In this document: positions 777-32,276 of the stretch, piece after piece | How the letters are laid out: each line of letters begins with the position of its first letter | Numbering within the stretch: position 1 is the stretch's first letter | Source of the DNA: a virus | Lineage: Duplodnaviria > Heunggongvirae > Uroviricota > Caudoviricetes | Virus record (IMG/VR): IMGVR_UViG_3300025133_006513 | Span: 53,289 to 117,288 of that record | Reading direction: 5' to 3' (one strand) | DNA: 64,000 nt | Made by a program: the position numbers and the translations under genes | The notes under the pieces: model-generated | The model's database searches: none | Seen by the model: only the letters and a program-made list of their open reading frames with translations | Told to the model about the DNA's origin: nothing

Positions 777-1471
777 TCAAACTAACGCTCGAACAGGCCG
801 TCAGACAGAACCAGTTCCTCAGTCAGAGGATGCTGGTAGTGCAATCACTTCTGAGCTCGCTCGGGAGTGAAGGTACTAACGCAAAAGGGTTATCCCCGGA
901 CATGCTGTTATCTTTTCCAAGAGCTGCCATACTCTGGGAGTTTGCCGCTGTTGTGGCTCGCGGGATTATACCGCAAGATGCTATGATAGTAGTGATTCAG
1001 ATGTTCCAGAAGGAGCTGATAGATAAAGCAATGTACTGGGAGAAGACGATCGAGGAGCATCCTGAGGATCCCAAACTAGTGCCTCAGGTCCTCGCGGTAC
1101 ATGATCGGAAGCTCATACACATCGCCGGTGAGACGAAGTTCTACGACGTGCAGCACTGCAACCTCATCGAAGAGTCGCCAAAGGTTTTTGAAGGTGTGTC
1201 TTACAATCTGGCAGTTCCGGTACAGCTGGAATGGCTGAAGATTCAACAGGAGAGCAAGGATGCCGCTGACCGCCAAAGTCCGAGAAACACTCCTGGATCC
1301 CCACACCCCAGCGACAGTGCTGCTGGTATTAGCCGTCGACCTGCTGGGGCCGGAGGTGCTGGAGTGGGACCCCCAAACAATCCGTATGGAGCTCGAGGAG
1401 GTCGCAGCCTCAAAGATCTCCAGCAGCACCTTAAACAGAACGATGGCAGCGATCGAGTTGGTGACAACTAA
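773..1471 (+). CDS. hypothetical protein; 3' end uncertain because the last ~70 codons are G/P/R-rich and look out of frame
   Basis: ATG at 773 is coupled to the upstream stop. The N-terminal 160 aa look protein-like. The ORF overlaps 1260..1982 in another frame. Confidence 0.4.
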   Translation: MIKLTLEQAVRQNQFLSQRMLVVQSLLSSLGSEGTNAKGLSPDMLLSFPRAAILWEFAAVVARGIIPQDAMIVVIQMFQKELIDKAMYWEKTIEEHPEDPKLVPQVLAVHDRKLIHIAGETKFYDVQHCNLIEESPKVFEGVSYNLAVPVQLEWLKIQQESKDAADRQSPRNTPGSPHPSDSAAGISRRPAGAGGAGVGPPNNPYGARGGRSLKDLQQHLKQNDGSDRVGDN

Positions 1472-1982
1472 CGGCTTCTATCGTGACCTACCTACCTTCA
1501 TCCGTCTGTGCAACGTGCTCTACAACGGCACGATGGACTTGGAAACGTTTGATCCCGCCGACGCTGGCGAGATCGCGTGGGGCGTAACGGAATCGCTCCT
1601 CATATGGCCGCCTGATCCTCAGGACGAGGAACCTTTTGACCAGAAGATCGCTACATATATCGGATACGCCCTCAAGGATGAAGGTATAATGCAGCCACCT
1701 GATGTGCTGCAGCTCGGTATCTTACCCAGCGATGTATGGGCTAAAGTTCAGGCGGCATTTTCTGATGATCCTCAAATGTTTCGCATGATCCACGATGTGG
1801 AGAAGGCCAAGACAGATGAGATCAATGCGATGGTAAAGCAAAGGCTTGCCGTCATTCTTCACACACTGGACGAGATACCTCTCGATACCGGTGATGCCAA
1901 GGATTCAGTTCGGACGATGCTTGGCGCTCTCAAGAGGACCGAACAGAAAAGTGATGAACTCAAACCAGTAAATCATGCCTAG
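1260..1982 (+). CDS. hypothetical protein
   Basis: 240-aa ORF with balanced composition. This frame opens at 1239. Confidence 0.55.
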   Translation: MPLTAKVRETLLDPHTPATVLLVLAVDLLGPEVLEWDPQTIRMELEEVAASKISSSTLNRTMAAIELVTTNGFYRDLPTFIRLCNVLYNGTMDLETFDPADAGEIAWGVTESLLIWPPDPQDEEPFDQKIATYIGYALKDEGIMQPPDVLQLGILPSDVWAKVQAAFSDDPQMFRMIHDVEKAKTDEINAMVKQRLAVILHTLDEIPLDTGDAKDSVRTMLGALKRTEQKSDELKPVNHA

Positions 1983-3192
1983 AACTTTACGAGGCACTGG
2001 AAGAGACTACACGTCAACCCCTCCGTATCCACACTCTGCGGCAAGTTATGCACAGCAGGTACAGGCGTCACAACCGCTAGAGACACGCGAATATCGGGAT
2101 ACAGCGTTTGTGGAGGAGGATATACCGTTGCCTTTCCAGATCGTACAACGAATTACACCGCCGCTGCTTAGCGTGGTGTGGATACGGCGAGTTGACCGTA
2201 TCAATACACACATCTCGAACATACGTATGTTCGAAGGTGATTACCATGACTTACGTGATGGTTACATCGGGGGCCGCGCTGGCTCAATCTTTCTCGTATG
2301 TACGCAACCAAGCGCAGCACCAGATCTGGTGCACGCGTACATACTGCTCCCTGATGGTTTATGGTGCAACACAGGTATGCTGCCAATCGCGAGGCAGCCA
2401 GGATGGCACCAGCTAGTACGCCCGCACATCGCCAGTTGGACATGCTTATCGCGTGTCCAGCGGGTGGTTCAAGCAGGCACACTTATGCAGAACGTCCTCA
2501 CCAACGAGCTACACGCCCTAGGTGAAGACGCTGATCGAGAACACACAGAACCTGTCGAGGCCGCGCTCGATCATGTGCGTCGTGTCATTAACGTGGTTAC
2601 CAATCAAACTGTAGATCTGACGCCAAGTGCTATTAGGCGGTCATTTAATAACTGGGTAACAGAGACGATGCGTGCGACAGACTCGACCAGTGACCAGGTG
2701 AATATCGCTCTGGAGCATATGCTTAACGTCCCACAACCGACAGTAGCTAAAGATCTGACTGACGGTATATGGGCGTTACAGCGACTGCACCGCGATACCG
2801 CAAAGCAACCAGTTGAAGGCATCAATGACTTCCCGCAATTGCGTGCAGCGTTGCGGCGTATCCAGGCTGCAATGGAGCGAGAAGAATTCCTACGAGAGTG
2901 GCAATACACCGCAGTCCGACGCATCGGAATGCGAAAGAAAGCCCGACAGGCTTCTACCGACAGAACACTTACAGAGCTTTTAGCTGACTATAAGTGTGAC
3001 AAGGTGGAGCCTTACTTAAGAGCTAACTACGCATGGCACTGCACCAACAGAGGTGCAATGGAACGCGTAGTTCAGCAAGCGATATCACTTGCAAATTTGC
3101 ATATGACTCGAGACGAAGGTGAAGCCCTTCGCAGTACAGACAATCGTCAGAAACGACATATAAAACTTGGAAGGAAGCGAGATGGCAACTAG
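1975..3192 (+). CDS. hypothetical protein with C-terminal RQKRHIKLGRKRDGN tail
   Basis: 405-aa ORF overlapping its neighbours by a few nucleotides. It ends in the recurring basic tail motif. Confidence 0.6.
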   Translation: MPRTLRGTGRDYTSTPPYPHSAASYAQQVQASQPLETREYRDTAFVEEDIPLPFQIVQRITPPLLSVVWIRRVDRINTHISNIRMFEGDYHDLRDGYIGGRAGSIFLVCTQPSAAPDLVHAYILLPDGLWCNTGMLPIARQPGWHQLVRPHIASWTCLSRVQRVVQAGTLMQNVLTNELHALGEDADREHTEPVEAALDHVRRVINVVTNQTVDLTPSAIRRSFNNWVTETMRATDSTSDQVNIALEHMLNVPQPTVAKDLTDGIWALQRLHRDTAKQPVEGINDFPQLRAALRRIQAAMEREEFLREWQYTAVRRIGMRKKARQASTDRTLTELLADYKCDKVEPYLRANYAWHCTNRGAMERVVQQAISLANLHMTRDEGEALRSTDNRQKRHIKLGRKRDGN

Positions 3193-4225
3193 CTTTTCTC
3201 AACGTCTTATGGACAAGATTGACTCAGGTTCAAGCATAATCTGGATCTATCTCACCGGCGATGAAGGCCGGGCGGAACGACAGCTCAAAGAAATCACCAA
3301 ACAATACGCCATAGCATCAGACACCCCAATCGGGTTCGAGCATTGGAACTGTGTTGCAGGTGCCAGCTGGCAAGCAAAGCTCAAGGATCCTGCAGCAGCG
3401 ATGCTGGAGATCAGAGATAAGCTCGCAGGTAATGTGCTCGTCCTGATGAAGGACCTGGCCACATACCTTAACGGCCAAGGTGCAAAGAACCTTGAGCTAC
3501 GACGATGCCTGGCAGAGCTCTGCTGTGCCAACGCACTGTCGAATAACTCGCGAACACGACCAATCGTGATCCTCGCGACAACACCTACGCCACACCCAGA
3601 CATCGCGGAATACTGCGACGTCATCGACTTCGACCTGCCTAAGTACCCAGAAATGCGTGAAGACGTGGTTGACTTCATCGTCAACTCGGCCCAAACGAAC
3701 AATAAAGGGAACACAAAGGCCAGTGCTGAAGACGACGAGCTGCTTGAGCGTATTACTCGAGCACTCCTGGGAACCACGGCAGAAGAAGCACAACGCATCT
3801 TCGCCTTCGCCATCACTACGGTGGGGGAGATCTCGGAAGACGTATTGGAAATCATCGCGGCTGAAAAGGCCAAGGTCATCCGTAAGGTTGAAGGGCTGCG
3901 GTTCATCCCGCACTCCAAGATCCCTGAGGAGACAGCGATTGGCGGTTTCTCGTATTTCTTACCTTGGTTGAAGAAGCGAGCAAGAGCGTATTCGCGGCAC
4001 GCACAGTCTGTCGGCTTGGAGCTACCTCGTGGTTCTGTGCTAATCGGGCCTCCGGGCACGGGTAAGACAATGGTAGCTAAGTCTGCGGCGAAGATGCTCG
4101 GGCTGGACTTGATCATCATGGATATCGGTAGCATGTTCGACAAATACGTCGGCGGCTCCGAAGCCAAGATCAGAACAGCCCTGCAAACCGTAGCGGCTAT
4201 GCCCAACGCCCTGCTGATGGTGGAT
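3182..4225 (+). CDS. AAA+ ATPase, exon 1 (N-terminal domain, Walker A GPPGTGKT, ends ...LLMVD)
   Basis: RBS GGAAGGAAG lies upstream of ATG 3182. Walker A is present. Exon 1 stops at the Walker B aspartate; the DE-IDKAF continuation is found at 5081. Confidence 0.7.
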
Positions 4226-5080
4226 AGATTCTGTCCCACAGGTCGGTGACGGCCTGTAGCAAAGCCCTTTAATTGCAAGAAACTCCTATTCGTAATACCA
4301 ATACGAAGGACAATTTGCAGCCAAACCGCAGTATGCCCTGCGGAAGGTTCAGAGACTAGGCGAAAGCCGTAGGACCCAAGCGGGTTCGAAACAGGGGCCT
4401 TGTCAAACGTACGATTGTGATGTAGGTTAGAAAAGGTTTTTCTAACGTATATCAGGAGGTTAGTTTATGTGGAGTCGCAAATTTGATCGTTGTATCGAGT
4501 GCAAGCGTGACGAAATTCCACACATGGCCAAAGGGCTGTGTGGTCGCTGCTATATGCAACAGTACGTGGCTGATAACCGCGAAACTGTTGCGAAATATAA
4601 GCGAGATTGGTATTTTGCGCATCACGAAGAGCAACTAGCTGCTCGTAAGATCACCAGAGAGCAAATACACTTTTCTGGTATGCGGGAAGCAGCTATACGT
4701 GTTGCGTATCGTAAATGTCAACGATGCGGCAGCGATCAACAACTATGTGTGCACCATAAAGATCGGAACGGTCGCGGATGCGATCAGCCCGATAACACAC
4801 TTGATAACCTGGAAGTACTATGCCGACGGTGCCATATCAATGAGCATCGTGCAGAATTAGTAGCAAGCAGGCGGCAAAGTGACACACCTAAACTAAACAA
4901 GCACGGTACGTGGAGTATCAAACATGACGCATGCACAGAGTGTGCGTCTAATTGCTACGCCCATGCAGCCAAAGGGCTGTGTACTCGATGCTATCAGCGT
5001 GCTAAGACAAGATGACATAGTCCGGACTTGCAGGTAACTGTAAGAGTGCCACCGGAAGCGGGTGGTGCGTAACATATTCG
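4226..5080 (+). mobile_element. group-I-like self-splicing intron carrying an HNH homing endonuclease ORF
   Basis: The intron interrupts the AAA+ Walker B motif. The 5' exon ends in U (..GAU) and the intron ends in G (5080), as expected for a group I intron. The 5' part (4226-4466) is ORF-free with GNRA-type hairpins (GGCGAAAGCC). Splicing restores LLMVD|EIDKAF. Confidence 0.6.
4467..5015 (+). CDS. HNH homing endonuclease (intron-encoded)
   Basis: HNH motif CVHHKDRNGRGCDQPDNTLDNLEVLCRRCHINEH. There are N- and C-terminal CxxC...CxxC zinc-finger repeats. RBS AGGAGG precedes the ATG. Confidence 0.75.
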   Translation: MWSRKFDRCIECKRDEIPHMAKGLCGRCYMQQYVADNRETVAKYKRDWYFAHHEEQLAARKITREQIHFSGMREAAIRVAYRKCQRCGSDQQLCVHHKDRNGRGCDQPDNTLDNLEVLCRRCHINEHRAELVASRRQSDTPKLNKHGTWSIKHDACTECASNCYAHAAKGLCTRCYQRAKTR

Positions 5081-5746
5081 GAAATTGACAAAGCGTTCGC
5101 GGGTGCTCACGAAGGCCAGTCCACCGACTCTGGTGTGGCTTCTCGCGTCCTGAGTTACTTCCTGAACTGGCTCAGTGAGCGAGACATGGGCAGTGAAACA
5201 GATAACCGTGTGTTCGTCATGGTGACGATGAACCGCACAGCAGGTGTCGACTCGGCTATGCTACGTAGTGGCCGATTTGATCGGGTATGGTCTACTGACC
5301 TCCCAGACAAGGATGAACGTATGCAGATCCTCAAGATCCACATGACCAAACGTGGACTGGATGCCGAGAGTTATGGCAAGACGCTCGGGAAGGTAGTCAG
5401 CGCTACCGATACGTTCACTGGTGCAGAGCTTGAAGAGATCGTTATCTCTGCACGTAACGACGCCTACGACGAGCGTATGACACGCTATGAAGAAGGCGGT
5501 AAGAAAGGCGAGGCACCTGGTGTCGAAGCCATCCGTCCTACTATTGAAGAGCTCTTGAGTGCAGCAGGTGAAATCACCCCTGTGGCTCAGCTCGATCAAG
5601 AGGACATTGCTGCTATCAGAAAGTTCTGCCAGGAAAACACATACCCTGTTAACGGGGAACGTGTGCAGAGTACCAAACGTAGTCGGTCCCCCCGCAAGGT
5701 CGCAACTGGGCGAGCCAAGACGGGCTCCGACGTTTCAAACAACTAG
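5081..5746 (+). CDS. AAA+ ATPase, exon 2 (EIDKAF..., sensor 1, arginine finger SGRFDR, sensor 2/lid)
   Basis: The frame is open from 5021. It reads EIDKAFAG...NRVFVMVTMNR...RSGRFDR...TGAELEEI and has no start or RBS of its own. Confidence 0.7.
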   Translation, partial: EIDKAFAGAHEGQSTDSGVASRVLSYFLNWLSERDMGSETDNRVFVMVTMNRTAGVDSAMLRSGRFDRVWSTDLPDKDERMQILKIHMTKRGLDAESYGKTLGKVVSATDTFTGAELEEIVISARNDAYDERMTRYEEGGKKGEAPGVEAIRPTIEELLSAAGEITPVAQLDQEDIAAIRKFCQENTYPVNGERVQSTKRSRSPRKVATGRAKTGSDVSNN

Positions 5747-5755
5747 GAGAGTCAC

Positions 5756-6172
5756 GTGAGTCATATCACAAAACGTAAGTCGTCGATGAAGAACGAAGAG
5801 ACCATCAAGAAGGCCGTAGCGCGAATCAAGGGGGCTTCGTACGAAGGCCTTGGTTCGACTCGGACCTACAACAATGGTTCGATTCGTGGTCACCTTGTAC
5901 AGCTACCCGGCTGGAAATACAAACTCGCCATTGACCCCGCCACAGGGGAATGCGTGTTTGACAACTACAACGGGAGCTGGGGCAAGGACGAGCACCTCGA
6001 CGCATTGAAGCAGGGCTACGCTGTGGAAGCAGCCAAGGCTAAGGCCGAAGAAGAAGGCCACGAGTTCATCGAAGAGATGCAGGAAAACGGCTCGATCAAG
6101 TGTGTCATCCCCTTGGGCGGTGGCGGTTACGAAATGGGTGGCGACGGTGGCGGAGACGGCTACGACGTCTAA
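5756..6172 (+). CDS. hypothetical protein with Gly-rich C-terminus
   Basis: GTG start preceded by GGAGAG. The C-terminus reads PLGGGGYEMGGDGGGDGYDV. Confidence 0.5.
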   Translation: MSHITKRKSSMKNEETIKKAVARIKGASYEGLGSTRTYNNGSIRGHLVQLPGWKYKLAIDPATGECVFDNYNGSWGKDEHLDALKQGYAVEAAKAKAEEEGHEFIEEMQENGSIKCVIPLGGGGYEMGGDGGGDGYDV

Positions 6173-6220: not shown

Positions 6221-6439
6221 ATGAGCACTGCTCAACACACAGGCCCTCGCATTGAGATCCTGGTCGACAAGAAGGGCAATCCCACCGTAAGCGCACCAGG
6301 CGTCGGTGGTGGAGATTGTAAGATCAAATCAGCGGGCTATGAGTCGCTGTTTGGCGATGTTATCGAGACCCAGGCCACGTCGGAAGCATTTGAAGACGAG
6401 CCCGAGATCGAAATCAAGATGGAGCAAGACAATAGCTAA
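6221..6439 (+). CDS. hypothetical small protein
   Basis: ATG with GGAGTAAGAAAACC upstream. 72 aa. Confidence 0.5.
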   Translation: MSTAQHTGPRIEILVDKKGNPTVSAPGVGGGDCKIKSAGYESLFGDVIETQATSEAFEDEPEIEIKMEQDNS

Positions 6440-6764
6440 GTCAGTTGCTATCGTCATAGACGCAGACGGAACCGCTCGGAGCCTCGTAGATGAGGCCTCC
6501 GAGCGGATCTGCTCTGAGATTGGCCCGAAGATTAGTACGCGACGGGCCTCTCATGTAGAGAGTTGGTGGGACCTAACACCTAACGTCAGACGGTGGATTA
6601 AAGACAATCTACTCGACGGCGACTGCAGTAAGGTCGATACCAACGCATTCTGGGCAGACATGCTGCCCGTCGGCGGACCCGTTCTCGGGCCGTATGTTAA
6701 TTACAAAGAGGCCATCGACGCTGAGGTCGCATGGCTGCACGAGCACAATATCCCCGGAGCCTAG
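6438..6764 (+). CDS. hypothetical protein (start uncertain, no ATG near the 5' end)
   Basis: The protein-like part of ORF 6306..6764 begins around 6438. The upstream part is R-rich and out-of-frame-looking. Confidence 0.35.
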   Translation, partial: KSVAIVIDADGTARSLVDEASERICSEIGPKISTRRASHVESWWDLTPNVRRWIKDNLLDGDCSKVDTNAFWADMLPVGGPVLGPYVNYKEAIDAEVAWLHEHNIPGA

Positions 6765-7009: not shown

Positions 7010-7198
7010 CTAACCAGTTAGCCGTGGCTTGCTTACTTTCTGCCCGTTTTTTGCGGGGGATAGTCTATCCCGGCGACGCCGGTGGGCTTTACTCGCACAC
7101 TCACGACAAGGACTATACGGCTTGCCGGTAGTTTTACGAGTATAGAAATCTGCGATCGGTTTATCCGTGTCGCATTTACTGCAGTATTTAGTAGCCAT
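7010..7198 (-). CDS. small zinc-finger protein resembling the N-terminal domain of the phage HNH endonuclease at 58815..59216
   Basis: CSKCDTDKPIADF...CREC parallels CSKCNKNKPLAEF...CALC in the HNH protein. No HNH catalytic motif is present. Confidence 0.45.
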   Translation of the reverse strand: MATKYCSKCDTDKPIADFYTRKTTGKPYSPCRECASKAHRRRRDRLSPAKNGQKVSKPRLTG

Positions 7199-7252
7199 GG
7201 GATCTCCTTATGGTTACATTCCAATTAACCAAGTAAATCAGGCAGAGGCAGT

Positions 7253-8399
7253 AATGTCAAGTAATATACCGCCAGAAGAAGACTTGCTGGATGCTATCAC
7301 GAAGAACGTGTTCCTCGTGATGTTACGGTGCAGTTGGCCCAAGATGTCTTATCAAATCGCTGATGCGATTGTGGAGATCAAGGTCGACGGCGAGGAGAAG
7401 AAAGAAGTTGATGCAGAGTTCCGCACCAAACCCCAATGGCAGTTGATGCCGGCGGCGTGGCGGAGCAAACTGACCAACCTTGAAGGACGTGCACGGTCAT
7501 TACTGTCCGCTGCGTCCATCCAGTTCGCTGCGAGGGGCATGTCTGTATTGCCCATCGCGAGAGCTGGAGAGATCTTCGCAGGCCTTCGGGCCTTACGTAC
7601 GGAGCTTGAAGGCTACCGTGACGAGTTTGTCCAAGACTATGAGGGCATCCTCGTGAGGCTTGAAGAGAGCCTGGATGGTGATCTGTTCGAGAAGGTACAG
7701 GGCAAGCTCCCTGCCGTCGAGACGGTTGCCAGTAAGTTCAGCCTGGTTTGGGCTATCATCCCAGCAGGTGGCAAGCAGAGCGTCTCTGAAACTGAGCTGG
7801 GCCAACTGCAGGATGTACTCAACCACGCTATCCAAATGGATCTGCAGCTTGACGACACCGATCCCGCTGTCAGTCACTCAATAGCGAGGGCTGGGCAGGT
7901 ATTGGATAACATGCGAGCACGTAGCGAGCAACAGTCCAGGACGATCGATGACGATGAGGCTTCTGAGCTCGTACAGGAGGCCCAGCAGCAGATGCGTTCC
8001 TTTACGAACGACATGCTGGAAGACATGGCTCGCGAACCTCGCAGGGTCCTTGTCGATGCAGCTGATAACCTGCTGGAAGCATTGAAGAATCCCGATCGGA
8101 TCATCCGAAGCGGCACTATCAACCAAGTACGTGATGCATTTCAGATGCTTGAGGGCTTTAAGTTCCTCGCTGGCGATCAACTGCTTGCACGTATGCGTGA
8201 GTGCCGCGCAAGTCTTGAAGATATGACGCCTCGCACGCTGAACTCCAACGCTGAGATCGGGGCCCAACTGGCTGCCGGGCTCACAGGGGTCAGAGAAGAG
8301 GCTGCTGATACGCGTGCTGCAGCGACAGCTATGCGACAATTCCGAGGCATCAAGCTGCGGGACAAGTCAAAAACCAAACGGCAGCCCACGGCTGTCTAA
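7253..8399 (+). CDS. hypothetical protein ending in ...RQFRGIKLRDK... (variant of the recurring tail); alternative starts at 7167 and 7196
   Basis: AGAGG RBS lies 6 nt before ATG 7253. The ORF runs to 8399. Confidence 0.55.
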
Positions 8400-8409: not shown

Positions 8410-8604
8410 ATGGGTGATTACCACCAGAATAAGCGATTAAAGGCGGATCGCGATGCGGCGGCAGCACTACACGAACAACAGTACCAAGAGATGTGGCAGT
8501 TTGTTCTGTGGTGTGCAGAAGGGGAACAACCCCGTGACGTGGTTGAGCAGGCAGATCGACTTATACGCAAGATAAAGGCGAAAACCAATGAGTCGGCAAA
8601 GTGA
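8410..8604 (+). CDS. hypothetical small protein
   Basis: AGGAGG RBS precedes ATG 8410. Confidence 0.5.
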   Translation: MGDYHQNKRLKADRDAAAALHEQQYQEMWQFVLWCAEGEQPRDVVEQADRLIRKIKAKTNESAK

Positions 8605-9061
8605 TGGAATCTCGTGGACATTCAAAAACGGGAAGAAGTTTCCTGCAGGAAGTTCACGCTCACGCGGGGTATCGCCCCGCAAGGTCATGGAGTCTACGAG
8701 CTCCAATGGCCTTACTAAGTATCTGACGATTCTTTGGAACGATGGCGTCATCACCTGCGACAGTCGCGGGCTAAGCAGACTGATCACTGGGTGTACGTTG
8801 CAGCCAGGGTCATTGCCTATAACACAATGGGAGGTACCGATGCCGGGACCAGTATGTGTACCGTGTAAACAAGAGATGCGATGCGCCAACAGTGACGCTA
8901 TGGTGAATGACCCTGCAGCGGGTGACGCCCCGAGTACGTACTGGTTTAGCGTCACATGGCACTGCACACAGTGCGGTAACGAAATCTCCATACCGAGCGG
9001 ATGTGCTGTTGTACCATCTGCGATGGGTCGCGATGCATCTGTGGAGTTTAACTACTCGTAA
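8588..9061 (+). CDS. hypothetical protein with CxxC pairs
   Basis: 157-aa ORF containing CVPC and CTQC motifs. It overlaps the upstream stop. Confidence 0.5.
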   Translation: MSRQSDGISWTFKNGKKFPAGSSRSRGVSPRKVMESTSSNGLTKYLTILWNDGVITCDSRGLSRLITGCTLQPGSLPITQWEVPMPGPVCVPCKQEMRCANSDAMVNDPAAGDAPSTYWFSVTWHCTQCGNEISIPSGCAVVPSAMGRDASVEFNYS

Positions 9062-10813: not shown

Positions 10814-11192
10814 AAGACTTTGCAAAGCGGTACGCACACCAGTGTACCAGTCGTTGTTTCTAATCGTGACTACCGTGTTTATTCTCGGTGCCACCGATAC
10901 TGCTGCGAATCCAACGTGGACACACACAGCTACTCTGGTCCTTTTGGTGTGTTATCTGCTTAAGACAGGTAAGACGTTCATGCAAGAGATCAGAGACACA
11001 CCACCGGAGATCGTTAAATCCGCAGACGACTGCTACACGCGTGAAGACCCTCCAGGGTGTCACTCGTTTACAATCAAGGAGGGTAAGCACGGCCACGTCG
11101 AGGTTGTCGACGAGGCCGAACATACGCACCCACCTGAGCTGGATGACGACTTTGGCCGTACGCCGTACCCTGATGACGAGTCTACTACTTAA
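10749..11192 (+). CDS. hypothetical membrane protein (2 predicted TM helices)
   Basis: Hydrophobic stretches LFLIVTTVFILGA and TATLVLLVCYLL. The start is uncertain. Confidence 0.45.
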   Translation: MPQQPLQPPLSKWSLTSVEILKRLCKAVRTPVYQSLFLIVTTVFILGATDTAANPTWTHTATLVLLVCYLLKTGKTFMQEIRDTPPEIVKSADDCYTREDPPGCHSFTIKEGKHGHVEVVDEAEHTHPPELDDDFGRTPYPDDESTT

Positions 11193-12399
11193 GCTTGTCC
11201 CAGAGGCTCCCAGGCTTCGGCTTGTGCTGTTCTGCCATGGAGACCTGCTCAGCTGCGGAGATCGATCTTCCGACTGATGCAGACTTCGTGGCGAACGGTG
11301 CAATGCCAGCCTCGGATACAACCTCGTCAAACAACTCGGCATCGCCAAGCGGCAATGTCGGGACAATGTTGGCGAGCTTTTCAATATCAACCCAGGCACC
11401 TGCCGTGCAGACTTCGTCAGTGAAGTCATCACCCAGGTTATCGGCAAGCGACTGGACGGCCACCTTCTGGAGGTCGTCACGCTTGTAATACTTACCGGTA
11501 AGCGGGCTCCCGATCACGCTGTCACCAGCGTCTCGGGCAGCTTTGCCTGTTACCGCGAACAGCACATCCTCAGGACGCTCGATGACGTCATCGTACCGGC
11601 CGCGAAGATTGTGCTCACCGTCGAACGCGTCGACGATGCTTGCGATATCCCCAAGAGAGGAGATGTACCCGCCAGGACTGTTCTCACAGATCCCTGCAAG
11701 CTTTTCCATCTCTTGTTGGATTTCAGAGGGCTGGTGGGTATTGCCAGCAGCGCGGATACGTGTGCGAAGCATCGCAGCGACATCCTTGCCAGCACAGGCA
11801 CCCATGCAAGCTGTCTTCTCAAGCATGTAGCGATGCTCGGGTAAGCCTGCACCAAACTCGGAGGCCTTCTCCAGCACCTTTTCAGCAACCTTGCGTCGAT
11901 CGGCGAAGGGGAGCTCATCACGGTGATCTTGCAGCCAAGCCGCTGCAGTCTTCACTTCCTTTGCATTTCGCATAGGGTAGTGACGCTCATTGGTGCCGTC
12001 GCCTGCGTCGAATACAATGGCGAATACGTTATCAGGTAACGCGGTCTCGTCGTACTCAGACGCGGCAGCTACCTTCTCAGTGAGCCGACGCATGTAGCCT
12101 GTGACTTTGAAGTACTCAGCAGCTTTCTCGAGCTTACTCTCGATCAAAGATGCGTGGTGCTTGTTCAACTCAGCCTTCTTCTCTTGAAAGAAAATTGAAG
12201 AAATGACTGTCGCCGGACCCGAATGGATGGGATAATGCCGACGCGTCATGTCTGCATACAGGTGTGGGGGAAGGTCCCCGCCGCCGCAGACATCCTGCTG
12301 ACTTGCGTTCTTCACGAAGTCAGGCAGTGGGTAGACCGAAAGAATGCGATGAAGCTCTTGGCCGTTGAGGTCGGTTGTTTGGTCGTTTACCTTAGACAT
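11185..12399 (-). CDS. hypothetical protein (lone minus-strand gene in a plus-strand block)
   Basis: 404-aa ORF. AGGAG RBS on the minus strand. Divergent from 12429 with only a 29-nt spacer. Confidence 0.55.
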   Translation of the reverse strand: MSKVNDQTTDLNGQELHRILSVYPLPDFVKNASQQDVCGGGDLPPHLYADMTRRHYPIHSGPATVISSIFFQEKKAELNKHHASLIESKLEKAAEYFKVTGYMRRLTEKVAAASEYDETALPDNVFAIVFDAGDGTNERHYPMRNAKEVKTAAAWLQDHRDELPFADRRKVAEKVLEKASEFGAGLPEHRYMLEKTACMGACAGKDVAAMLRTRIRAAGNTHQPSEIQQEMEKLAGICENSPGGYISSLGDIASIVDAFDGEHNLRGRYDDVIERPEDVLFAVTGKAARDAGDSVIGSPLTGKYYKRDDLQKVAVQSLADNLGDDFTDEVCTAGAWVDIEKLANIVPTLPLGDAELFDEVVSEAGIAPFATKSASVGRSISAAEQVSMAEQHKPKPGSLWDKLK

Positions 12400-16369: not shown

Positions 16370-16441
16370 GCCGCATTAGTCTAGTGGTTATGACTTCGGA
16401 TTTTCTATCCGACAACGGGAGTTCGATTCTCCCATGCGGTA
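16370..16441 (+). tRNA. tRNA, anticodon loop UUUUCUA (UUC-Glu by the canonical 7-nt loop; UCU-Arg not excluded)
   Basis: Hand-folded cloverleaf. The acceptor is GCCGCAT/ATGCGGT with a G1-U72 wobble. The D loop is AGTGGTTA. The anticodon stem is TCGGA/TCCGA. The T arm is GGGAG-TTCGATT-CTCCC. The discriminator is A. Confidence 0.6.
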
Positions 16442-16446
16442 CTTGA

Positions 16447-16517
16447 TGCCTGGAAGTGTACTGGCTGCACACTAAGTTTTGGTCTTAGGAGACTGGGTTC
16501 GATTCCCGGCCGGGCTG
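16447..16517 (+). tRNA. tRNA-Gln-like (anticodon UUG)
   Basis: D stem GTGT/GCAC. Anticodon arm CTAAG-TTTTGGT-CTTAG. T arm CTGGG-TTCGATT-CCCGG. Six of seven acceptor pairs form, with a 1:72 mismatch. Confidence 0.5.
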
Positions 16518-16536
16518 CTTGAAAGGAGAGTGATAA

Positions 16537-16973
16537 TGAATGTTCTCATTTATGCTATCGCGATACTTACAACAGCTTCCGTAGTCCCTGAGACTGCGGT
16601 GAACGACCAAGTTGAGCTCATCGAGATCAACCACTTCTATGACGATCAGGGCCGCCTCGTCTTTGACCAGGTCATCTTCTACGACTGGTGCACCTACGAT
16701 AATCGCTACCAGGTGCGGGCGTGGCGGTTGCTCAAACACAACGCACAAATACCCCGCTACAACTGGCGTAGCAGCGACTACACGACTATCTGGCACGATG
16801 GAGATGTGCTACGTCGCGTGCGGTGTAAGGTCCTCCGTGAGACCTGGACGCAGTTCGACCCGGAGATCCTGGAGCGGGATTTCCTGCCTAAGGAGTACCG
16901 GCGGGAGCTGCGTAAGATAAGGAAACGCAAACAGGAGACTCCGGATATTCATCCGGGCGACCTTGACCCATAA
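16537..16973 (+). CDS. hypothetical protein with N-terminal signal/TM segment; C-terminus contains ...RRELRKIRKRKQ...
   Basis: AAAGGAG RBS precedes ATG 16537. The tracked ORF start at 16479 lies inside the tRNA and was trimmed. Confidence 0.55.
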
Positions 16974-17364: not shown

Positions 17365-17847
17365 ATGATTATCGATGCAGCTGCTATTGCGGATATGGAC
17401 CTTTCTTTGCGAGCAGCATGTGAGGACCGTATATTGTACGACAGAATGCAATGGATCACGCTAAGTGATGCAGATTTTAGCAAGATGATCGCTACAGGCC
17501 ATGACCGGCACATAATAAGTACCAGGAGAGAAGTTGTCTCGCGTAGTCGCCTACACGGGATGGTAGGCGGGCCGATATGGCTCAGGCGTATAGCGGGCAA
17601 TATGGGCGAGTCGCTCGCGAACACGGTTAGAATCTGGGAAGGCAGACGACTGCAAGTGTTCAGCCATCCCCCTCGCATAGCTGTCTTCAGTAGTGGTGCA
17701 GAAGGCCATTACGAGATATACGCGCAGCTGGTGTACACCACAATTGCTTACCCGATACTCGGCGTTGAACTTGTTAGTAGTGTTACCAAAATACCTAGCG
17801 TTCCAACCGAACGCCAACCAAGAAAGATAAGGCTGAAAGATGCTTGA
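17365..17847 (+). CDS. hypothetical protein ending ...ERQPRKIRLKDA
   Basis: AAGGAGG RBS. 160 aa. Carries the recurring C-terminal tail. Confidence 0.55.
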   Translation: MIIDAAAIADMDLSLRAACEDRILYDRMQWITLSDADFSKMIATGHDRHIISTRREVVSRSRLHGMVGGPIWLRRIAGNMGESLANTVRIWEGRRLQVFSHPPRIAVFSSGAEGHYEIYAQLVYTTIAYPILGVELVSSVTKIPSVPTERQPRKIRLKDA

Positions 17848-18154
17848 ACTGAAGGAGATCGATCTATCAAAATGTTTCGGCTGCGATCATCCTGATGTTC
17901 GCACTGATGGTACGCAGTACTTGGCGTACCATCAAACTTGGGGCCACGTGGGCCCGAAATGGCACGTGGGTACGTTTAGCCGCCAGTGGTGGGGCCTATC
18001 CATGAATTTTGGCGACTACCGCAAGCAGCTCGACGACGCTGAGTACCCAGATAAAACTAACGAATGGCTACTCCTGTTCGAAATGGGTGGCCCTATCAAA
18101 GACAACTCCCGACCCCCGGATGAGCGACAGCTCAGAAAGATACGACTCAAATGA
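17840..18154 (+). CDS. hypothetical protein ending ...ERQLRKIRLK
   Basis: 104 aa. Carries the recurring C-terminal tail. Confidence 0.55.
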   Translation: MLELKEIDLSKCFGCDHPDVRTDGTQYLAYHQTWGHVGPKWHVGTFSRQWWGLSMNFGDYRKQLDDAEYPDKTNEWLLLFEMGGPIKDNSRPPDERQLRKIRLK

Positions 18155-19677: not shown

Positions 19678-19825
19678 TGAAACTGAGGGGCACTGGGCAG
19701 GAACATCCCGGTGCTAGGTTGTGTGTAGGATAGGTGGGAGGCTATGAGCTACTGGCACAAGTCAGGAGTTAGCCGTTGGTGAAATACCACCCGCAACCTT
19801 TCCTCTTTTTAGAAGGAGGTGAAAC

Positions 19826-20092
19826 ATGGGGACAACGCTAGTACCCGTGCCGTGGAAGTTTCAGAATAGAAAGTGCTGCCATCACTGTAAGCTGGTTTTC
19901 CCTGTGAAGGCGACAGCCGGGTACTGCCCGCACTGCTGGCCTCGCAAATGTTTTGTTGACGTCGGCCAGTTCAGATGGATTCGTACAAGCAAGTGGTGGG
20001 AGTTTTGGGTTCGCGGTAAAGGTTACTGGCTACCCATGATGGCGCCATTCACCCGGTACGCAGATGCACCGCCGCGGCCGCCTAGTCGGTAA
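19826..20092 (+). CDS. small zinc-ribbon protein
   Basis: Strong RBS AGAAGGAGGTGAAAC. CCHHC...CPHC motifs. Confidence 0.55.
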   Translation: MGTTLVPVPWKFQNRKCCHHCKLVFPVKATAGYCPHCWPRKCFVDVGQFRWIRTSKWWEFWVRGKGYWLPMMAPFTRYADAPPRPPSR

Positions 20093-21965
20093 GTACCTCG
20101 TCGTCCCAGTCAGAGTCTTTCTGCATTGTTGCAGCCTTGAGCTGCTCCTGCGTGATCTCGTACTGGGCCATCTCTGCGAGGTTCGGCCACCGCTTACTGC
20201 GGTACCAGATGGCTGTGGCGCCAAGGTTAACCGCCTGGGCAAAGTCATCAGAGAACCCGTCCTGCCGTGTGATCCGATAGATCTCCCCGGCAGACATGGT
20301 TGTAACCTTGTCTTCTACAAGGGCCAGGAAGTCGCGGATTAATCCAGCATCCTCTTGGCTCTTGTAATCAGCGTCGAAGAACCTCATCATCCCCGTCTTG
20401 ATCATCGCACAACATAACAAGAGCGTACGGCTCTTATCCACGCGATAGTGAGACCTGGGGTGCTGCTGTGTCGGCGCGACGTGGTAACAGGGCTGCTGCG
20501 AGGCAGACCGCACGTACTGACAAGGCATACTCTCACGGGCTTTAAGCCCTGCCTGAATAAGGAATGTCTCACGCAGAGCACCGGCACCAGTGTAATCGTG
20601 AGCGAGGATCGTCGGACGGAATATGTCCCACATCTTCTTAATCTCACGAGCCTCCAACAGGTGATCGTGCGGAGTCAGCAATCGACGACCATAGATCACT
20701 TCGATCGAACCGTCTAGGCGGAGGCCAAGCAGTGCGGCAGTTGTAAAGCTGACCTTCTTCTCGCCACCACCACCCCAGTCAACACCCAACACAGTCATGC
20801 GGTACTTACCGCGGCGTGCTTTGGCATGCTTTATCGTATTAGGGCCTAGATTCGACACCTTGTCGAGTTCTGTAAGGGTAACGAGTTTGGCAGCCGTATC
20901 GTACGACTCACCAAGCACTTCGTTAAAGAACACGTTCGCCGGCGTGTTACCCTTACCGGCCTGCTTCGATAACAGTTCAGCCCACTTGTCGGGCTTGCCG
21001 TAGTGCAGAGGCATAATCACCTGCGGGACGTGGTAGCCAGCCTGCCACCAGACCCTGGCAGGGAATCGGTGGATCCAGCGGCCCATGCGAGGGCTGATGG
21101 CTTGACCGCACTTGTAACAAAGAGTCGCAGGGTGTTTCTCAGAGATATCGTCGTGGTAGGGTCCAATCATCTTCTCAAGATGGAACTCCATTGTGGGTAT
21201 ATTCCACGTGGGGTGCCCGCCCGTGGTGCAATGTAAGCACGGGATGAACCACTCAGCCTGTGAGGACTCCTGCCACAACGCTTCAAGCGTGTTGTCCAGG
21301 GTCTTAGGCGTGCCCGTGAACTGGCGGAGCGCCAGGTCAGAGGCAGACATTGTTTCACGAATGATCGGGATATGCTCATGGTTCATATCCTGGACTTCAT
21401 CGATCGCTACCTTGTCGGCCGAGATGCCGCGACAGCGATCTGCGTTGAGGAACGCGAAAGAGAACAACATTTTTGAGTTGTTGCGGAAGCTCCGATGCAG
21501 CACGGAGTTTACCGTATCTGTGCCGATCCACATGTCTTTGACAGGGGATTGGTCGATAAAGGGCTGCACAAACATGGAACTGAAGCGGCGTACCTGTTCG
21601 AACAGCGGCATCACGTAGAGCGTGGTGCGGTTAGGTAAGGCCTGTGACAGTACAACCCCGTGAGCTGCCAGCGACGTACTCTTGGATACTTGGCGACCTG
21701 TCTTGTAAACTAGAGCTGACGGCATACGAAACCGGAAGACCTCCTCAAATGGGAAGTGATCGATTAACGAATACGGTTCCCCTTTGAGGTTGAGCAAGAG
21801 AGGCAACGAATGGGCCATCGTATCTAGATTGCCCGATCGTATCATCTTGTTGTAGGCATTAATGCTATCAGATGGCGATGCGTGCTGGGCACTTCCCCGC
21901 ACAGTATTGGTAGCTGCTAGCATTGCCTCCACTAACGCCGGTTCCACTAAGACGGGATTAAGCAT
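20082..21965 (-). CDS. terminase large subunit (ATPase plus RNase-H-like nuclease); alternative GTG start at 22040
   Basis: Walker A KTGRQVSKST. Walker B VAIDEVQD. Nuclease-domain motif MTVLGVDWGGGG. GGAG RBS lies before ATG 21965. Confidence 0.8.
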   Translation of the reverse strand: MLNPVLVEPALVEAMLAATNTVRGSAQHASPSDSINAYNKMIRSGNLDTMAHSLPLLLNLKGEPYSLIDHFPFEEVFRFRMPSALVYKTGRQVSKSTSLAAHGVVLSQALPNRTTLYVMPLFEQVRRFSSMFVQPFIDQSPVKDMWIGTDTVNSVLHRSFRNNSKMLFSFAFLNADRCRGISADKVAIDEVQDMNHEHIPIIRETMSASDLALRQFTGTPKTLDNTLEALWQESSQAEWFIPCLHCTTGGHPTWNIPTMEFHLEKMIGPYHDDISEKHPATLCYKCGQAISPRMGRWIHRFPARVWWQAGYHVPQVIMPLHYGKPDKWAELLSKQAGKGNTPANVFFNEVLGESYDTAAKLVTLTELDKVSNLGPNTIKHAKARRGKYRMTVLGVDWGGGGEKKVSFTTAALLGLRLDGSIEVIYGRRLLTPHDHLLEAREIKKMWDIFRPTILAHDYTGAGALRETFLIQAGLKARESMPCQYVRSASQQPCYHVAPTQQHPRSHYRVDKSRTLLLCCAMIKTGMMRFFDADYKSQEDAGLIRDFLALVEDKVTTMSAGEIYRITRQDGFSDDFAQAVNLGATAIWYRSKRWPNLAEMAQYEITQEQLKAATMQKDSDWDDEVLTD

Positions 21966-22123
21966 GTATAACTCCGATGAGGATGAAGACTTGCAAAAGT
22001 TCGACTGGGTCGAACAACAGTGCAAGCAATTTTGGCCCACACCGGGTCATTTCTGGGCCACCGTAGTGCTAGTATGGCTAGCATATATGGTAGTCTGCTG
22101 TCTGTAGCAAGATAGCACAGGTC

Positions 22124-24185: not shown

Positions 24186-24566
24186 ATGCAGGTCGTTAGG
24201 TTCTTCGAGCAAGAGCTCGGTATTGTTGCGAAAAAGATATATCGCAGCATGAAGATGGAACGCTTCCGCATTTACTACGGCAACCCGGTGACCGGGCGGG
24301 CGTGGGACGAGTGCGATGAAGGCCATATATCTCTAAGTCTTGGGGACAATCCTGTCCTCATAGTTCAGCATAATGTTGACTCCCCAGAGGCCAGCGTCAT
24401 CTTGATGAATAACATCGTCAAGATAAAGGCTTGTCTCGGCGGGCGTGTAATCTATCGCCACCCGCGGTTCCATACTCACGAAGAGAGGGCACCACAGGTG
24501 GAGGATGATGCAGTAATGCAACGCACCCCGCGTAAAATCTCCTTAGGAAGGAAGCGCGATGGCTAA
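24186..24566 (+). CDS. hypothetical protein ending ...RTPRKISLGRKRDG
   Basis: ORF frame of 24030..24566. The first ATG after the upstream stop is at 24186. Confidence 0.45.
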   Translation: MQVVRFFEQELGIVAKKIYRSMKMERFRIYYGNPVTGRAWDECDEGHISLSLGDNPVLIVQHNVDSPEASVILMNNIVKIKACLGGRVIYRHPRFHTHEERAPQVEDDAVMQRTPRKISLGRKRDG

Positions 24567-25185
24567 GTCAGATCAACCATCTGTCCCAGATATGATTAGT
24601 GAGTTTCGTTTGAGTAGGATGGGGCAGCACTGGGTGCGGCTATACGCCCCACTTACTCTGCAAGTGGGTGCAGTCTTGCATTACTACGCTAAGATGGTCG
24701 AGAAGCATGGCCTGGTGCCGCGATGGCGAGTTACTGTTCGCTACATTCACGGCTATTGGCATTCTGGCTACGTGATGCGACAAGAATGGCCCGGGCCAGG
24801 GGGTCAGCTGATGGCCAAGTTAGTGCTGCAGGAGTCCAGTCGTAGCGGCTTCCGCCCCGCCATACAAACGGAATACATCGATCGAATCTTGCATAGCAAT
24901 GCCAAGTATGGCGGAGCAATTGCAGGTAATCGGGTGTCACCGGTACTAGCAAGGGATAAAGCCAACGCGTACCTACAAGACCATGGGTATCCCACTACAT
25001 TTGCGATAGATGATCGCAGGAGTCGTTCTGCCATGAAGGGCGTACGTACACGTAGAAGAAATGCAAAGGCCGCTACTGTTGTTGAAACACACGGCCGACA
25101 ATTTCGTAAGATTAGACTGGATGCAGATGACAAAGTTACAGCAGGAGCGACGAAGCTTTCAAATGGACAAGCAGCTACTGATTGA
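24559..25185 (+). CDS. hypothetical protein with ...GRQFRKIRLDADDK... near the C-terminus
   Basis: The start context GGAAGGAAGCGCGATGGC is near-identical to that of the AAA+ gene at 3182. Confidence 0.55.
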   Translation: MAKSDQPSVPDMISEFRLSRMGQHWVRLYAPLTLQVGAVLHYYAKMVEKHGLVPRWRVTVRYIHGYWHSGYVMRQEWPGPGGQLMAKLVLQESSRSGFRPAIQTEYIDRILHSNAKYGGAIAGNRVSPVLARDKANAYLQDHGYPTTFAIDDRRSRSAMKGVRTRRRNAKAATVVETHGRQFRKIRLDADDKVTAGATKLSNGQAATD

Positions 25186-30545: not shown

Positions 30546-31487
30546 GTGGCACTTCCTGAGCCATCACAGAACGCACAGCTCGCTGTCGAGGAGCCTGAGG
30601 CTTCTGATTTTTTCAAGCTCCCTGCTGAGGCGGAGGATAACAACCTACGCGAGGCGACTATAAAATCTGCTGCGCAGGACAAGTACGGGCCAAGGCCTGT
30701 CTTGCTCCTGCGTATGAGCAGTGACGGCCGCACCACCATCGACGGGTTTGTGGTGCCTGGTACTAATAATTTCTGGGGGGTGTACGCCTCTGACGAAAAC
30801 AAGGACCGCTGGGTGCCAATCCACCTACCTACAGGATTGTCGCTGCGTGAGAACTGTGCCAATCGTGATATGGCGGAGGCGCTCGCGTGCTGGTGTTACT
30901 GCCAGGGGCGTAACCACCCGGATCACGGGAGTAGTAGCTCTAACAAGGTCGTAGAGTCGATGGGCGCGAGAGGGCGTTCTGCGTTCCGTAAAGGCCAACC
31001 ATTCATGGTAAAAGGCCGGCAGCTTACACAGCGAATAGGTAAAAATGAAACTGTGCAAGCCGCAGGCGAAGCGATGTGGGCCGCGAGGCTTGAATCGCTA
31101 GAGGGTGAGCGGCGACTTGAGCTCACCCACTTATCAGCCAAGCTTGAGGATATCAAAGCGAGGGAGAAGGCTGTGCAACAGCGTGCAGACGTAGTTGCGG
31201 AGGCAGACCTGAAAGCCCAGCGACATTGGGAACAACGGCACGCAGTGCTGGAGACCCAGAGCGCTACGCTCACGTCGCGGGAGGAGGCTATCCGTGAGTC
31301 GAATGCCGCGGCGGTGGACGACACGTTAGCGGCGGCTCGTCAACTGGCGAACGCTCGTGACGCAGAGACCGAGCTACAGGCTATGCGTGAGCAGTTAATC
31401 AGCGCAATCACGACGATCGATCCAGCGGGTGCTGAGGATACGCGAGTAGGAAGGCAGCTCAGAAAGATCCGCCTTACTTCTGATTAA
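30546..31487 (+). CDS. hypothetical protein with coiled-coil C-terminal half ending ...GRQLRKIRLTSD
   Basis: GTG start overlaps the stop of a 12-codon mini-ORF (30509-30547). 313 aa. Confidence 0.5.
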   Translation: MALPEPSQNAQLAVEEPEASDFFKLPAEAEDNNLREATIKSAAQDKYGPRPVLLLRMSSDGRTTIDGFVVPGTNNFWGVYASDENKDRWVPIHLPTGLSLRENCANRDMAEALACWCYCQGRNHPDHGSSSSNKVVESMGARGRSAFRKGQPFMVKGRQLTQRIGKNETVQAAGEAMWAARLESLEGERRLELTHLSAKLEDIKAREKAVQQRADVVAEADLKAQRHWEQRHAVLETQSATLTSREEAIRESNAAAVDDTLAAARQLANARDAETELQAMREQLISAITTIDPAGAEDTRVGRQLRKIRLTSD

Positions 31488-31704
31488 GTAACTCTCCGCG
31501 AAAGCAACTGAGGGAGCAGTTAAGGCCGCAGTGCTGTTTAGCCCATGCGTAGAGTGCTGACATAGATAGTCCAGCGAACTCACCATTGTGGTACCTTTTA
31601 ACGAATTGATCCCAGATCTCCCGCTTCTTCCCCTTGAGGATCTTAGGAGTGATACGTCGATCTTGGGTCTTCAATTCAGCGAACGGGTCGGTGGCCTTTG
31701 CCAT
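31474..31704 (-). CDS. small hypothetical protein (possible DNA-binding protein)
   Basis: 76 aa, basic. Tail-to-tail overlap with 30546..31487. Confidence 0.45.
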   Translation of the reverse strand: MAKATDPFAELKTQDRRITPKILKGKKREIWDQFVKRYHNGEFAGLSMSALYAWAKQHCGLNCSLSCFRGELLNQK

Positions 31705-32276
31705 TATTCTTCTTCCTCCTCGGGCTCTGCGGCGACTGGCATGACTGTCGTGCCGCCGTGGATTCTGTGCATGTTAGTTAGATGAAAATCTGACATGAAT
31801 GCTTCTTCAACATTCACGCCAAACGGTGCGAGTGCTTTGCGTATCTTACGAGTTAATGCTGCGTTGACGCGTTGGTGTCTAATCGTGAGTTCCTCTAGCG
31901 TCTTACCGACGCATGCTTCGATCACGCCTGCTTGGGCGCGATCGACGATGGTTGTTTCGAAGTCCCTCGTCTCAACTAGGGCTTTCATGATATCATCGAT
32001 CGTGTAAACTACAATAACTGCAATCGTGATTCCGAGAGGTTTAGTATCGCTCCCTGGTAATGTCTGGGGCTCGAGACTAATGGTGTCACGTTTAACCGGA
32101 TGGATCATCGGCCTTTGGATTGGTGGCCAGTAGAGATGAAAGCCGGGCCCGACTTGCTTTGCTCTACCGAGTGTAAACATCACACCCTCCTGCGTGGCGT
32201 CCACGTGTATGCCTCGCGGGAAGACTCTTGATGCCCACCGTAACAGATCAGAAAGCCATCCAAGGCCGATGTCCAC
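31704..32276 (-). CDS. SPFH/band-7-like domain protein
   Basis: VIVVYTIDDIMKALVETRDFETTIVDRAQAGVIEACVGKTLEELT...RKIRKALAPFGVNVEEAFMSDF resembles the stomatin/HflC core. Confidence 0.45.
   Translation of the reverse strand: MDIGLGWLSDLLRWASRVFPRGIHVDATQEGVMFTLGRAKQVGPGFHLYWPPIQRPMIHPVKRDTISLEPQTLPGSDTKPLGITIAVIVVYTIDDIMKALVETRDFETTIVDRAQAGVIEACVGKTLEELTIRHQRVNAALTRKIRKALAPFGVNVEEAFMSDFHLTNMHRIHGGTTVMPVAAEPEEEEE

Follow-up and report, generated by a model that had tools for sequence, protein, structure and literature searches.

A short C-terminal tail shared by eight otherwise unrelated proteins of an uncultivated jumbo-sized phage and linked to a AAA+/DUF1257/DUF2997/DUF3150 gene module

Eight long open reading frames (ORFs) in a 64,000-nucleotide stretch of the uncultivated phage genome IMGVR_UViG_3300025133_006513 (positions 53,289 to 117,288 of that record; hereafter the window) encode otherwise unrelated proteins that end in variants of the same short peptide, R-x-x-R-x-Φ-x-Φ (Φ, hydrophobic residue). 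This peptide, hereafter the tail, is also found at the C-terminus of the DUF3150 protein family, and its carriers are associated with a conserved gene module that includes a p97/Cdc48-like AAA+ ATPase. We consider it probable (approximately 60%) that the tail serves as a short linear motif by which its carriers dock to a common receptor. The carriers are numbered c1 to c8 in their order along the window, and c5 is the locus that was reported initially.

A six-frame scan of the window with R-[QET]-x-R-[KHG]-I-[RKS]-[LK] returned eight matches, all located on the + strand, in frame with long ORFs, 1–21 residues before the stop codon and within positions 1–32 kb. The exact form RQxRKIRL occurred four times in the six frames. 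All eight instances listed in an earlier note on this DNA are present near a C-terminus, although two of its ORF starts, 7253 and 16537, were out of frame and have to be corrected to 7167 (GTG) or 7254 (ATG, the public gene call) and to 16536, respectively. Scored with a position-specific scoring matrix (PSSM), the eight tails reached 20.5–30.3 bits, and the next-best match in the window, which lies in a non-coding frame, reached 11.9 bits. When all ORF segments with 100 or more amino acids were residue-shuffled 300 times, matches at or above a threshold of 18 bits occurred 0.003 times on average and once at maximum, compared to the eight observed. All eight PSSM matches fell within the last 25 residues of their proteins (P ~5e-8 under random placement), and a back-translated degenerate DNA pattern had four matches versus none in 100 shuffles. 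The residue shuffles, the out-of-frame scans and the degenerate pattern rule out chance recurrence, and the motif is not similarly frequent in shuffled or out-of-frame translations, a possibility that the earlier note had raised against itself. An ORF at 8410-8604 ending in ADRLIRKIKAK scored below 6 bits and was not counted as a further instance in the window.

The constraint on the tails acts on the peptide. In the codons of the invariant R, R and I residues, third positions are nearly random and have an entropy of 1.4 bits, versus 0–0.5 bits at positions 1 and 2. Synonymous switches between CGN and AGR for arginine and between CTN and TTA for leucine occur among the tails, whose mean pairwise identity is 67% at the amino acid level versus 54% at the nucleotide level, and a repeat search revealed no direct-repeat family joining the tail sites. 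Since the codons differ synonymously and no DNA repeat links the sites, the tail is selected at the peptide level, as had been proposed; a nucleotide element or mobile DNA repeat was ruled out by the codon analysis, the repeat search and the degenerate-pattern search. The likeness of c1 and c6 beyond the motif has to be set apart from this. In both proteins the motif is followed by LGRKRDG (3169-3186 and 24546-24563), encoded by GGAAGGAAGCGNGATGG, which is the Shine-Dalgarno sequence or ribosome-binding site plus the ATG of the overlapping next genes (the AAA ATPase gene after c1, and c7 after c6). These residues lie outside the peptide motif and reflect a DNA-level constraint of the downstream start.

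BLASTP aligned the carriers to one another only across the tail (7–28 residues), which excludes hidden homology among them and bears out the claim that they are otherwise unrelated. Carrier c1 (1975..3192; 405 amino acids, no known family) has RQKRHIKL at 3145-3168, and the 3' end of its gene overlaps with the beginning of the AAA+ ATPase gene. The c1 orthologues of the related loci L009, L010, L012, L016 and L017 share 24–33% identity, and R391 and R394 of the tail belong to the 16 columns without variation. Carrier c2 (7167..8399; 381 amino acids in the public gene call from 7254; DUF3150 family, see below) has RQFRGIKL at 8334-8357. Of its 33 homologues (37–63% identity), 31 keep [AM][VM]-R-x-F-R-[GRN]-[IV]-[RK]-[ILF]-R ahead of a variable end; near-variants of the tail are present in the two most distant ones. 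Carrier c6 (24186..24566; 126 amino acids, phrog_17487 of unknown function) has RTPRKISL at 24522-24545, and all six of its orthologues keep R-x-[PF]-R-[RK]-I-[SV]-[LI] behind a PPEV-type linker. Carrier c8 (30546..31487; 313 amino acids with a coiled-coil-like C-terminal half) has RQLRKIRL at 31452-31475 and is followed by no + strand gene (convergent arrangement); its orthologues keep the tail at 27–30% overall identity (GRRFRKIRIKG in L019 and TRRLRKVRVRS in L028). Conservation of the tails in relatives, whose absence would have refuted the proposal of the earlier note, is thus strong, and orthologues retain the tail even though the sequences on either side of it have diverged.

The other four carriers, c3, c4, c5 and c7, had no orthologue in the relatives sampled and are lineage-specific ORFans. 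Carrier c3 (16536..16973; 145 amino acids) has RELRKIRK at 16902-16925, and c4 (17365..17847; 160 amino acids) has RQPRKIRL at 17812-17835 (30.3 bits). In c5 (17840..18154; 104 amino acids), RQLRKIRL at 18125-18148 (27.8 bits) stands one residue before the stop codon, and c4 and c5 share just a stretch of 28 amino acids comprising linker and tail (E = 0.006). The c5 protein was found unchanged on 16 public, presumably marine, metagenome contigs. In c7 (24559..25185; 208 amino acids), whose gene runs into the beginning of a GHKL-ATPase gene, RQFRKIRL at 25096-25119 ends 21 residues before the stop codon. A ninth carrier of 165 amino acids is encoded on L031 (15057-15554), approximately 4–4.5 kb beyond the 3' end of the window and upstream of a peptide deformylase gene. 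It contains TRTPRKIRLPP 31 amino acids before the stop codon and has a sub-threshold Pfam match to GvpL/GvpF (22.8 versus 23.6 bits). In the relatives, two to five tail-ending ORFs are located within 21 kb around c2, and zero to two (usually one to two) near the terminase gene.

The window ORF at 8588-9061 (+) has no tail. Its orthologues in L009 (11153-11527), L010 (11375-11872) and L012 (11465-11998) do have it, with the ending QLD[LF]S-[ET]-R-Q-x-R-x-IR[LIF], and the window copy shares the N-terminus with them and has a different, Cys-rich C-terminal part. As the orthologues bear the tail and the window copy does not, it was lost or replaced in the window.

The origin of the tail can be traced through c2. 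The window protein scores 16.9 bits against Pfam PF11348 (DUF3150), below the cut-off of 24.9 bits. Precomputed PF11348 matches exist for 27 of its 33 close homologues, and a clade profile searched against 1.84 billion representative proteins retrieved 803 DUF3150 family members, including proteins annotated as DUF3150 in L035 and L041. Based on these comparisons c2 belongs to DUF3150. The pattern R..R.Φ.Φ occurs within the last 30 residues of 77 out of 165 full-length DUF3150 members, against a background of 1.7% per 30 amino acids elsewhere in the same proteins, and distant members end in FG-R-x-x-R-x-[IL]-[DE]-[LIV]-COOH with both arginines invariant. Because these distant members end in the motif, the tail of c2 is the family's own conserved and ancestral C-terminus. 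The clade to which the window belongs differs from distant DUF3150 proteins by a basic rather than acidic position 7 and by extra residues past the motif, and furthermore has the motif on proteins outside DUF3150. On the distant fragment L035, the tail is present on DUF3150 (RQLRSLDV*) and also on a neighbouring protein (RNSRALDV*), so the spread to other proteins occurred more than once and was greatest in the window lineage. In the more distant phages L038-L041 the tail was found on DUF3150 only.

The anatomy of the tail was deduced from 31 non-redundant tails of the clade. Their consensus is [EN]-R-Q-[PFL]-R-[KGRN]-[IV]-R-[LI]-[RK], in which R1, R4 and I/V6 are present in all 31 tails and a hydrophobic residue occupies position 8 in 30 of them. 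An example within the length range of 12–20 residues is PPDERQLRKIRLK. The net charge of the tails is +4 to +5, and 0–31 residues separate them from the C-terminus; P, E, A, T and D abound among the ten residues preceding the motif. A helical conformation is disfavored by the frequency of Pro at position 3 (13/31) and Gly at position 5 (6/31). In the AlphaFold2 (AF2) model of c2 (predicted local distance difference test, pLDDT, of 82), the last helix stops at F363, the third motif residue, and the remainder is coil with a pLDDT of ~57–70. The tails have low pLDDT and do not dock in cis in the models of c2 and of the AAA ATPase. The residue pattern suggests that the tail is an extended peptide on a flexible linker, in which R4, Φ6 and Φ8 would share a face and the variable positions 5 and 7 would point to the opposite side.

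If the tail is a docking motif, it would bind in the extended conformation, with R1 and R4 anchored to an acidic patch and I/V6 and L/I8 (i, i+2) inserted into a groove, and positions 5 and 7 would face the solvent and be free to vary. The motif began as the conserved C-terminus of DUF3150 and was gained by several unrelated proteins of the clade (eight in the window); with docking, all tailed proteins would be recruited to the same receptor. We infer docking, the extended binding mode and the receptor candidates discussed below from these patterns. The shared docking or targeting peptide that had been proposed earlier is the best-supported interpretation, given the flexible linker and the invariant basic and hydrophobic core.

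The motif of the carriers is linked to a gene module that comprises, in the order found in the clade, the genes for the product of 773-1471, an acidic protein (1260-1982), c1, the AAA+ ATPase, a DUF1257-like protein, a DUF2997-like protein, the product of 6306-6764, DUF3150 (c2), a small protein and GP88. Beyond GP88 the synteny extends to the product of 11185-12399 (- strand), a 922-amino-acid protein and the large terminase TerL. It persists across ~45–75% TerL identity, and in more distant phages with ~49% TerL identity the core is kept with DUF3150 directly after the ATPase. The acidic protein (1260..1982, +; 240 amino acids, isoelectric point 4.5, net charge -19) is encoded upstream of c1 and the AAA gene and shares 47–74% identity within the clade and 35–39% with the distant L038-L040. 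The DUF1257-like gene (5756-6172, +; 21.8 bits versus a Pfam cut-off of 22.2 bits) follows directly 3' of the AAA gene, and the DUF2997-like gene is located at 6221-6439 (+; 23.9 versus 24.1 bits). Both are syntenic in all relatives, and DUF2997 is also annotated beside DUF3150 in L035 and L041. The GP88 family gene (PF17338; 9151..9870, +; E = 2e-34) forms the downstream end of the module, and L035 has the same order of DUF3150, small protein and GP88.

The AAA+ ATPase gene (3182..5746, +) consists of two parts, 3182-4249 and 5135-5746, split by a group I intron, with exon 1 ending at ~4231 and exon 2 starting at ~5135. Its product matches VAT/Cdc48 among the PDB sequences (E = 1e-39) as well as PF00004 and AAA_lid_3. 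The AF2 model of an intact orthologue, P0182 (pLDDT 87, predicted template modelling score, pTM, of 0.80), aligned over its full length to the D1-D2 part of p97, Cdc48 and Rix7 (Foldseek, E = 2e-21), and its residues 1-235 fold into a degenerate AAA-like domain instead of an N-domain. Since a second PF00004 match is lacking, D1 presumably has no Walker motifs. The model thus predicts a tandem D1-D2 type II AAA+ ATPase with a degenerate D1 and a putatively active D2, and without an N-domain. The ATPase itself bears a C-terminal variant of the tail, RSPRKVAT at 5684-5707, and the form R-x-x-R-[KR]-[VI]-x-T followed by DPxxN-COOH is conserved in ~35 orthologues. Docking of this tail in cis was rejected because the AF2 model leaves it disordered. 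An apparent fusion of c1 and the ATPase in L038, considered as a Rosetta-stone link, was discarded as hhalign showed no similarity.

The group I intron (4215-5044, +; Rfam RF00028, 55 bits) carries an HNH endonuclease ORF (4467-5015) and splits the ATPase gene near the Walker B motif. The gene is uninterrupted in L009-L017, and several database homologues of the ATPase stop at the same intron point. A tblastn search with the ATPase also led to Mycobacterium phage Catdawg of Cluster O (L036, 6235-8347), where gp98 (DUF7241) adjoins the AAA ATPase gp97 upstream. Gp98 ends in VRTLRRIVLRNGVS and gp97 in VRVLDL. The DUF1257/DUF2997/DUF3150 module was not recognisable in Cluster O mycobacteriophages, and we did not rely on these ends, which may distantly reflect the logic of the tail or be coincidental.

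Because of the linkage to the AAA+/DUF1257/DUF2997/DUF3150 module, a module component is the most economical candidate for the receptor of a docking tail. AAA+ unfoldases often read terminal peptides, as in the case of MuA and ClpX, p97 cofactors use short motifs, and the archaeal proteins Cdc48 and PAN rely on HbYX motifs at the C-terminus. For these reasons the p97/Cdc48-like unfoldase is our leading, still tentative, guess if the tail docks. Another protein of the module would be a somewhat less likely receptor, for example the product of 1260-1982, whose candidacy is speculative, and the remaining probability falls to a virion or host protein. A more far-reaching version, to which we assign a rather low likelihood, is a phage tag-and-engage system in which the unfoldase together with its DUF1257/DUF2997 partners would read the R-x-x-R-x-Φ-x-Φ tail, first on DUF3150 and later on about nine unrelated proteins.

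Several observations weigh against a docking hub. No receptor for the tail was found in this analysis, and the extended binding mode is derived from the residue pattern only. Linkage to the module amounts to guilt by association among related genomes, and the picture of many clients is limited to the window clade, as DUF3150 alone is tailed in L038-L041. The carriers show no functional theme that would support a hub: searches against Pfam, PHROGs and NCBIfam yielded only the weak DUF3150 match of c2, phrog_17487 for c6 and the sub-threshold GvpL/GvpF match of the ninth carrier, leaving all carriers except c2, whose family has no described function, without a functional assignment. For the unfoldase in particular, the lack of the cofactor-binding N-domain of the p97 kind weakens its case as a receptor, and its own tail variant fits a fellow client as well as a receptor.

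A docking tail would resemble established systems in which C-terminal motifs recruit many clients to one hub, such as the gp45-clamp tails of T4 gp43, gp55 and gp33, the beta-clamp motif QL[SD]LF and the DDDIPF tail of SSB. These are likewise short peptides attached via flexible linkers to unrelated proteins. The tail studied here differs in being basic and in lacking a Q-L-x-L-F or acidic-aromatic signature. Consistent with the earlier note, none of the 31 tails matches the beta-clamp (QL[SD]LF or QxxLxxF) or PIP-box (Qxx[LIM]xx[FY][FY]) consensus, and their core is R-x-x-R-x-[IV]-x-[LI]. The carriers also differ from the clients of these hubs in that they are not recognisable replication proteins; no tail was detected on any ORF of the replication module (33–64 kb), nor was a clamp identified. 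Arginine-rich linear peptides, often C-terminal, also connect many proteins to a single AAA+ unfoldase in the case of the p97/Cdc48 cofactor motifs (VBM of the RRRRL type, VIM and SHP) and of MuA RRKKAI with ClpX. A p97-like tandem AAA+ ATPase gene adjoins the conserved carriers here, and the resemblance is one of analogy. VBM and VIM bind the p97 N-domain (a double-psi barrel), whereas the phage ATPase aligns to D1-D2 only. The consensus also fits the MAPK D-motif, [KR]-x(2-6)-Φ-x-Φ, with basic residues, a spacer, Φ-x-Φ and, as proposed for the tail, extended binding, but D-motifs belong to a eukaryotic kinase system without a homologue here and the likeness is one of pattern only. With regard to the C-terminal Arg-rich signal of type IV secretion, a positively charged end recognised by a VirD4-type coupling protein, the tails do carry positive charge; no coupling protein or type IV secretion system gene was present among the proteins scanned from this incomplete genome.

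The foremost alternative, which we regard as unlikely, is that the tail brings proteins into the procapsid (scaffold, portal or capsid interior) or another phage-built compartment, where they would be packaged or co-localised. This would be a special case of docking. It agrees with the occurrence of one terminal tag on many unrelated small proteins, with the jumbo-sized genomes (57–226 kb per contig) and with the position of carriers near the terminase gene, and internal proteins of T4 are known to carry capsid-targeting sequences. The T4-type sequence, however, is N-terminal and cut by the prohead protease at L/I-x-E, whereas the tail is C-terminal and lacks L-x-E. Moreover, the searches of the window proteins identified no structural gene, and the ancestral carrier DUF3150 is tied to the AAA/DUF1257/DUF2997 module and not to head genes.

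The tail could also act as a degron or remodelling tag that is read by an AAA+ unfoldase, either host ClpX or Lon or the p97-like ATPase of the phage, and that times the removal or remodelling of the carriers. A C-terminal, basic and hydrophobic peptide on a disordered linker would suit this role, as would the unfoldase gene adjoining the conserved carriers, and ClpX recognises the C-terminal RRKKAI tag of MuA. That tag (ClpX C-motif 2) is located at the extreme C-terminus with a free carboxylate, whereas most tails in the clade are followed by 1–31 residues. The strict spacing and the two invariant arginines exceed the specificity of known C-terminal degrons, the ATPase itself has a tail variant, and no protease partner was seen in the window. 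This function therefore seems improbable as well.

Quite unlikely in our view is an arginine-rich tail that binds nucleic acid and tethers the carriers to phage DNA or RNA. The net charge and the alternating R-x-I-R-I-R are reminiscent of arginine-rich RNA-binding peptides such as BIV Tat, but distant DUF3150 proteins have Asp or Glu at position 7 and end at a free carboxylate (FGRxxRxIDL*), and the fixed spacing, together with positions 6 and 8 being invariably hydrophobic, points to a protein groove. Still less probable is a processing site at which cleavage after R-x-x-R, the minimal dibasic-type protease site, would remove a variable C-terminal stub. An extended conformation would suit a protease substrate and the residues past the motif are variable. 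However, there is little or nothing to remove, as 0–3 residues follow in several carriers and none in distant members, conservation continues for four residues past the putative scissile bond, and no protease gene was seen in the window.

We give hardly any credence to an effect of the nascent peptide in the ribosome tunnel on coupling to the overlapping next gene, or to a nucleotide element or chance: c1, c4, c5, c6 and c7 do reach or overlap the start codon of the next gene, and the stretch after the motif in c1 and c6 is the ribosome-binding site of that gene. However, arrest or coupling peptides would be expected to have a fixed register to the stop codon, and the distance of the motif varies from 0 to 31 amino acids. 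Furthermore, c8 lacks a co-oriented downstream gene, gaps follow c2 and c3, and the motif persists in orthologues whose downstream genes are arranged differently. Codon constraints account for all of the conservation seen in the DNA, and chance is excluded.

Returning to the docking motif, a shared terminal docking peptide is a known principle, and eukaryotes offer well-known examples of short linear motifs that gather numerous proteins at a single hub. To our knowledge, phage examples are limited to a few replication systems. The tail motif, the set of its carriers and the module appear to be new; our literature searches, which also covered DUF1257/DUF2997, Ycf46 in phages and short linear motifs of phages, turned up no paper on the motif, the DUF3150 C-terminus or the module. 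The tail marks at least nine proteins without known function in an uncultivated jumbo phage, provides a sequence rule for spotting functionally linked ORFans in related genomes, and offers a peptide of 8–10 residues usable as bait that bears on several uncharacterised families. The module is widespread in environmental jumbo phages. If the receptor were the phage unfoldase, the tail would constitute a virus-encoded tagging system, and a tag-and-engage mechanism would imply that the virus encodes its own network of clients to be unfolded, remodelled or translocated, comparable to ubiquitin-independent p97 cofactor motifs or ssrA/ClpX tagging.

The related IMG/VR contigs are 57–226 kb long and thus jumbo-sized, and identical proteins are present on JGI and ENA metagenome contigs; judging from the sample identifiers, the JGI samples are presumably marine. 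A megablast search found no near relative among deposited phages, and neither megablast nor tblastn of c2 and of a distant DUF3150 protein against phage and plasmid collections revealed cultured relatives. An alignment of distant DUF3150 proteins had no match in bacterial genomes and a single short match in metagenome contigs.

In addition to the large terminase gene of the gpA type (20082-22040, - strand), the window encodes SbcC, a helicase, a UvsX-like recombinase, an ORF with the size of an NAD-dependent-type ligase, and PolA. The latter, a family A polymerase of 1075 amino acids (55619-58846, +), is fused to an N-terminal domain of the uracil-DNA-glycosylase (UDG) superfamily. Between the genes for a DnaB/KaiC-like ATPase and PolA, a 703-amino-acid ORF with a LAGLIDADG_3 domain (53511-55622, +) may code for a homing endonuclease or contain an intein. 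Two genes of auxiliary type code for an HldE-like heptose enzyme, a bifunctional PfkB sugar kinase/cytidylyltransferase (heptose kinase/adenylyltransferase; 40723-42180, +), and for an SPFH/Band 7 protein (31704-32276, -). Genes for tRNA-Glu(UUC) and tRNA-Gln(UUG) are located at 16370-16518 (+), directly 5' of c3, and arrays of up to ~15 tRNA genes occur near the terminase gene in the relatives L019, L026 and L028. Finally, an intergenic stretch of 84 nucleotides (19716-19799, +) matches positions 2129-2212 of bacterial 23S rRNA in the L1-stalk region (58 bits, E = 1e-14). An Rfam search of seven related loci found nothing similar, and the stretch may either mimic a fragment of rRNA or have been captured as one.

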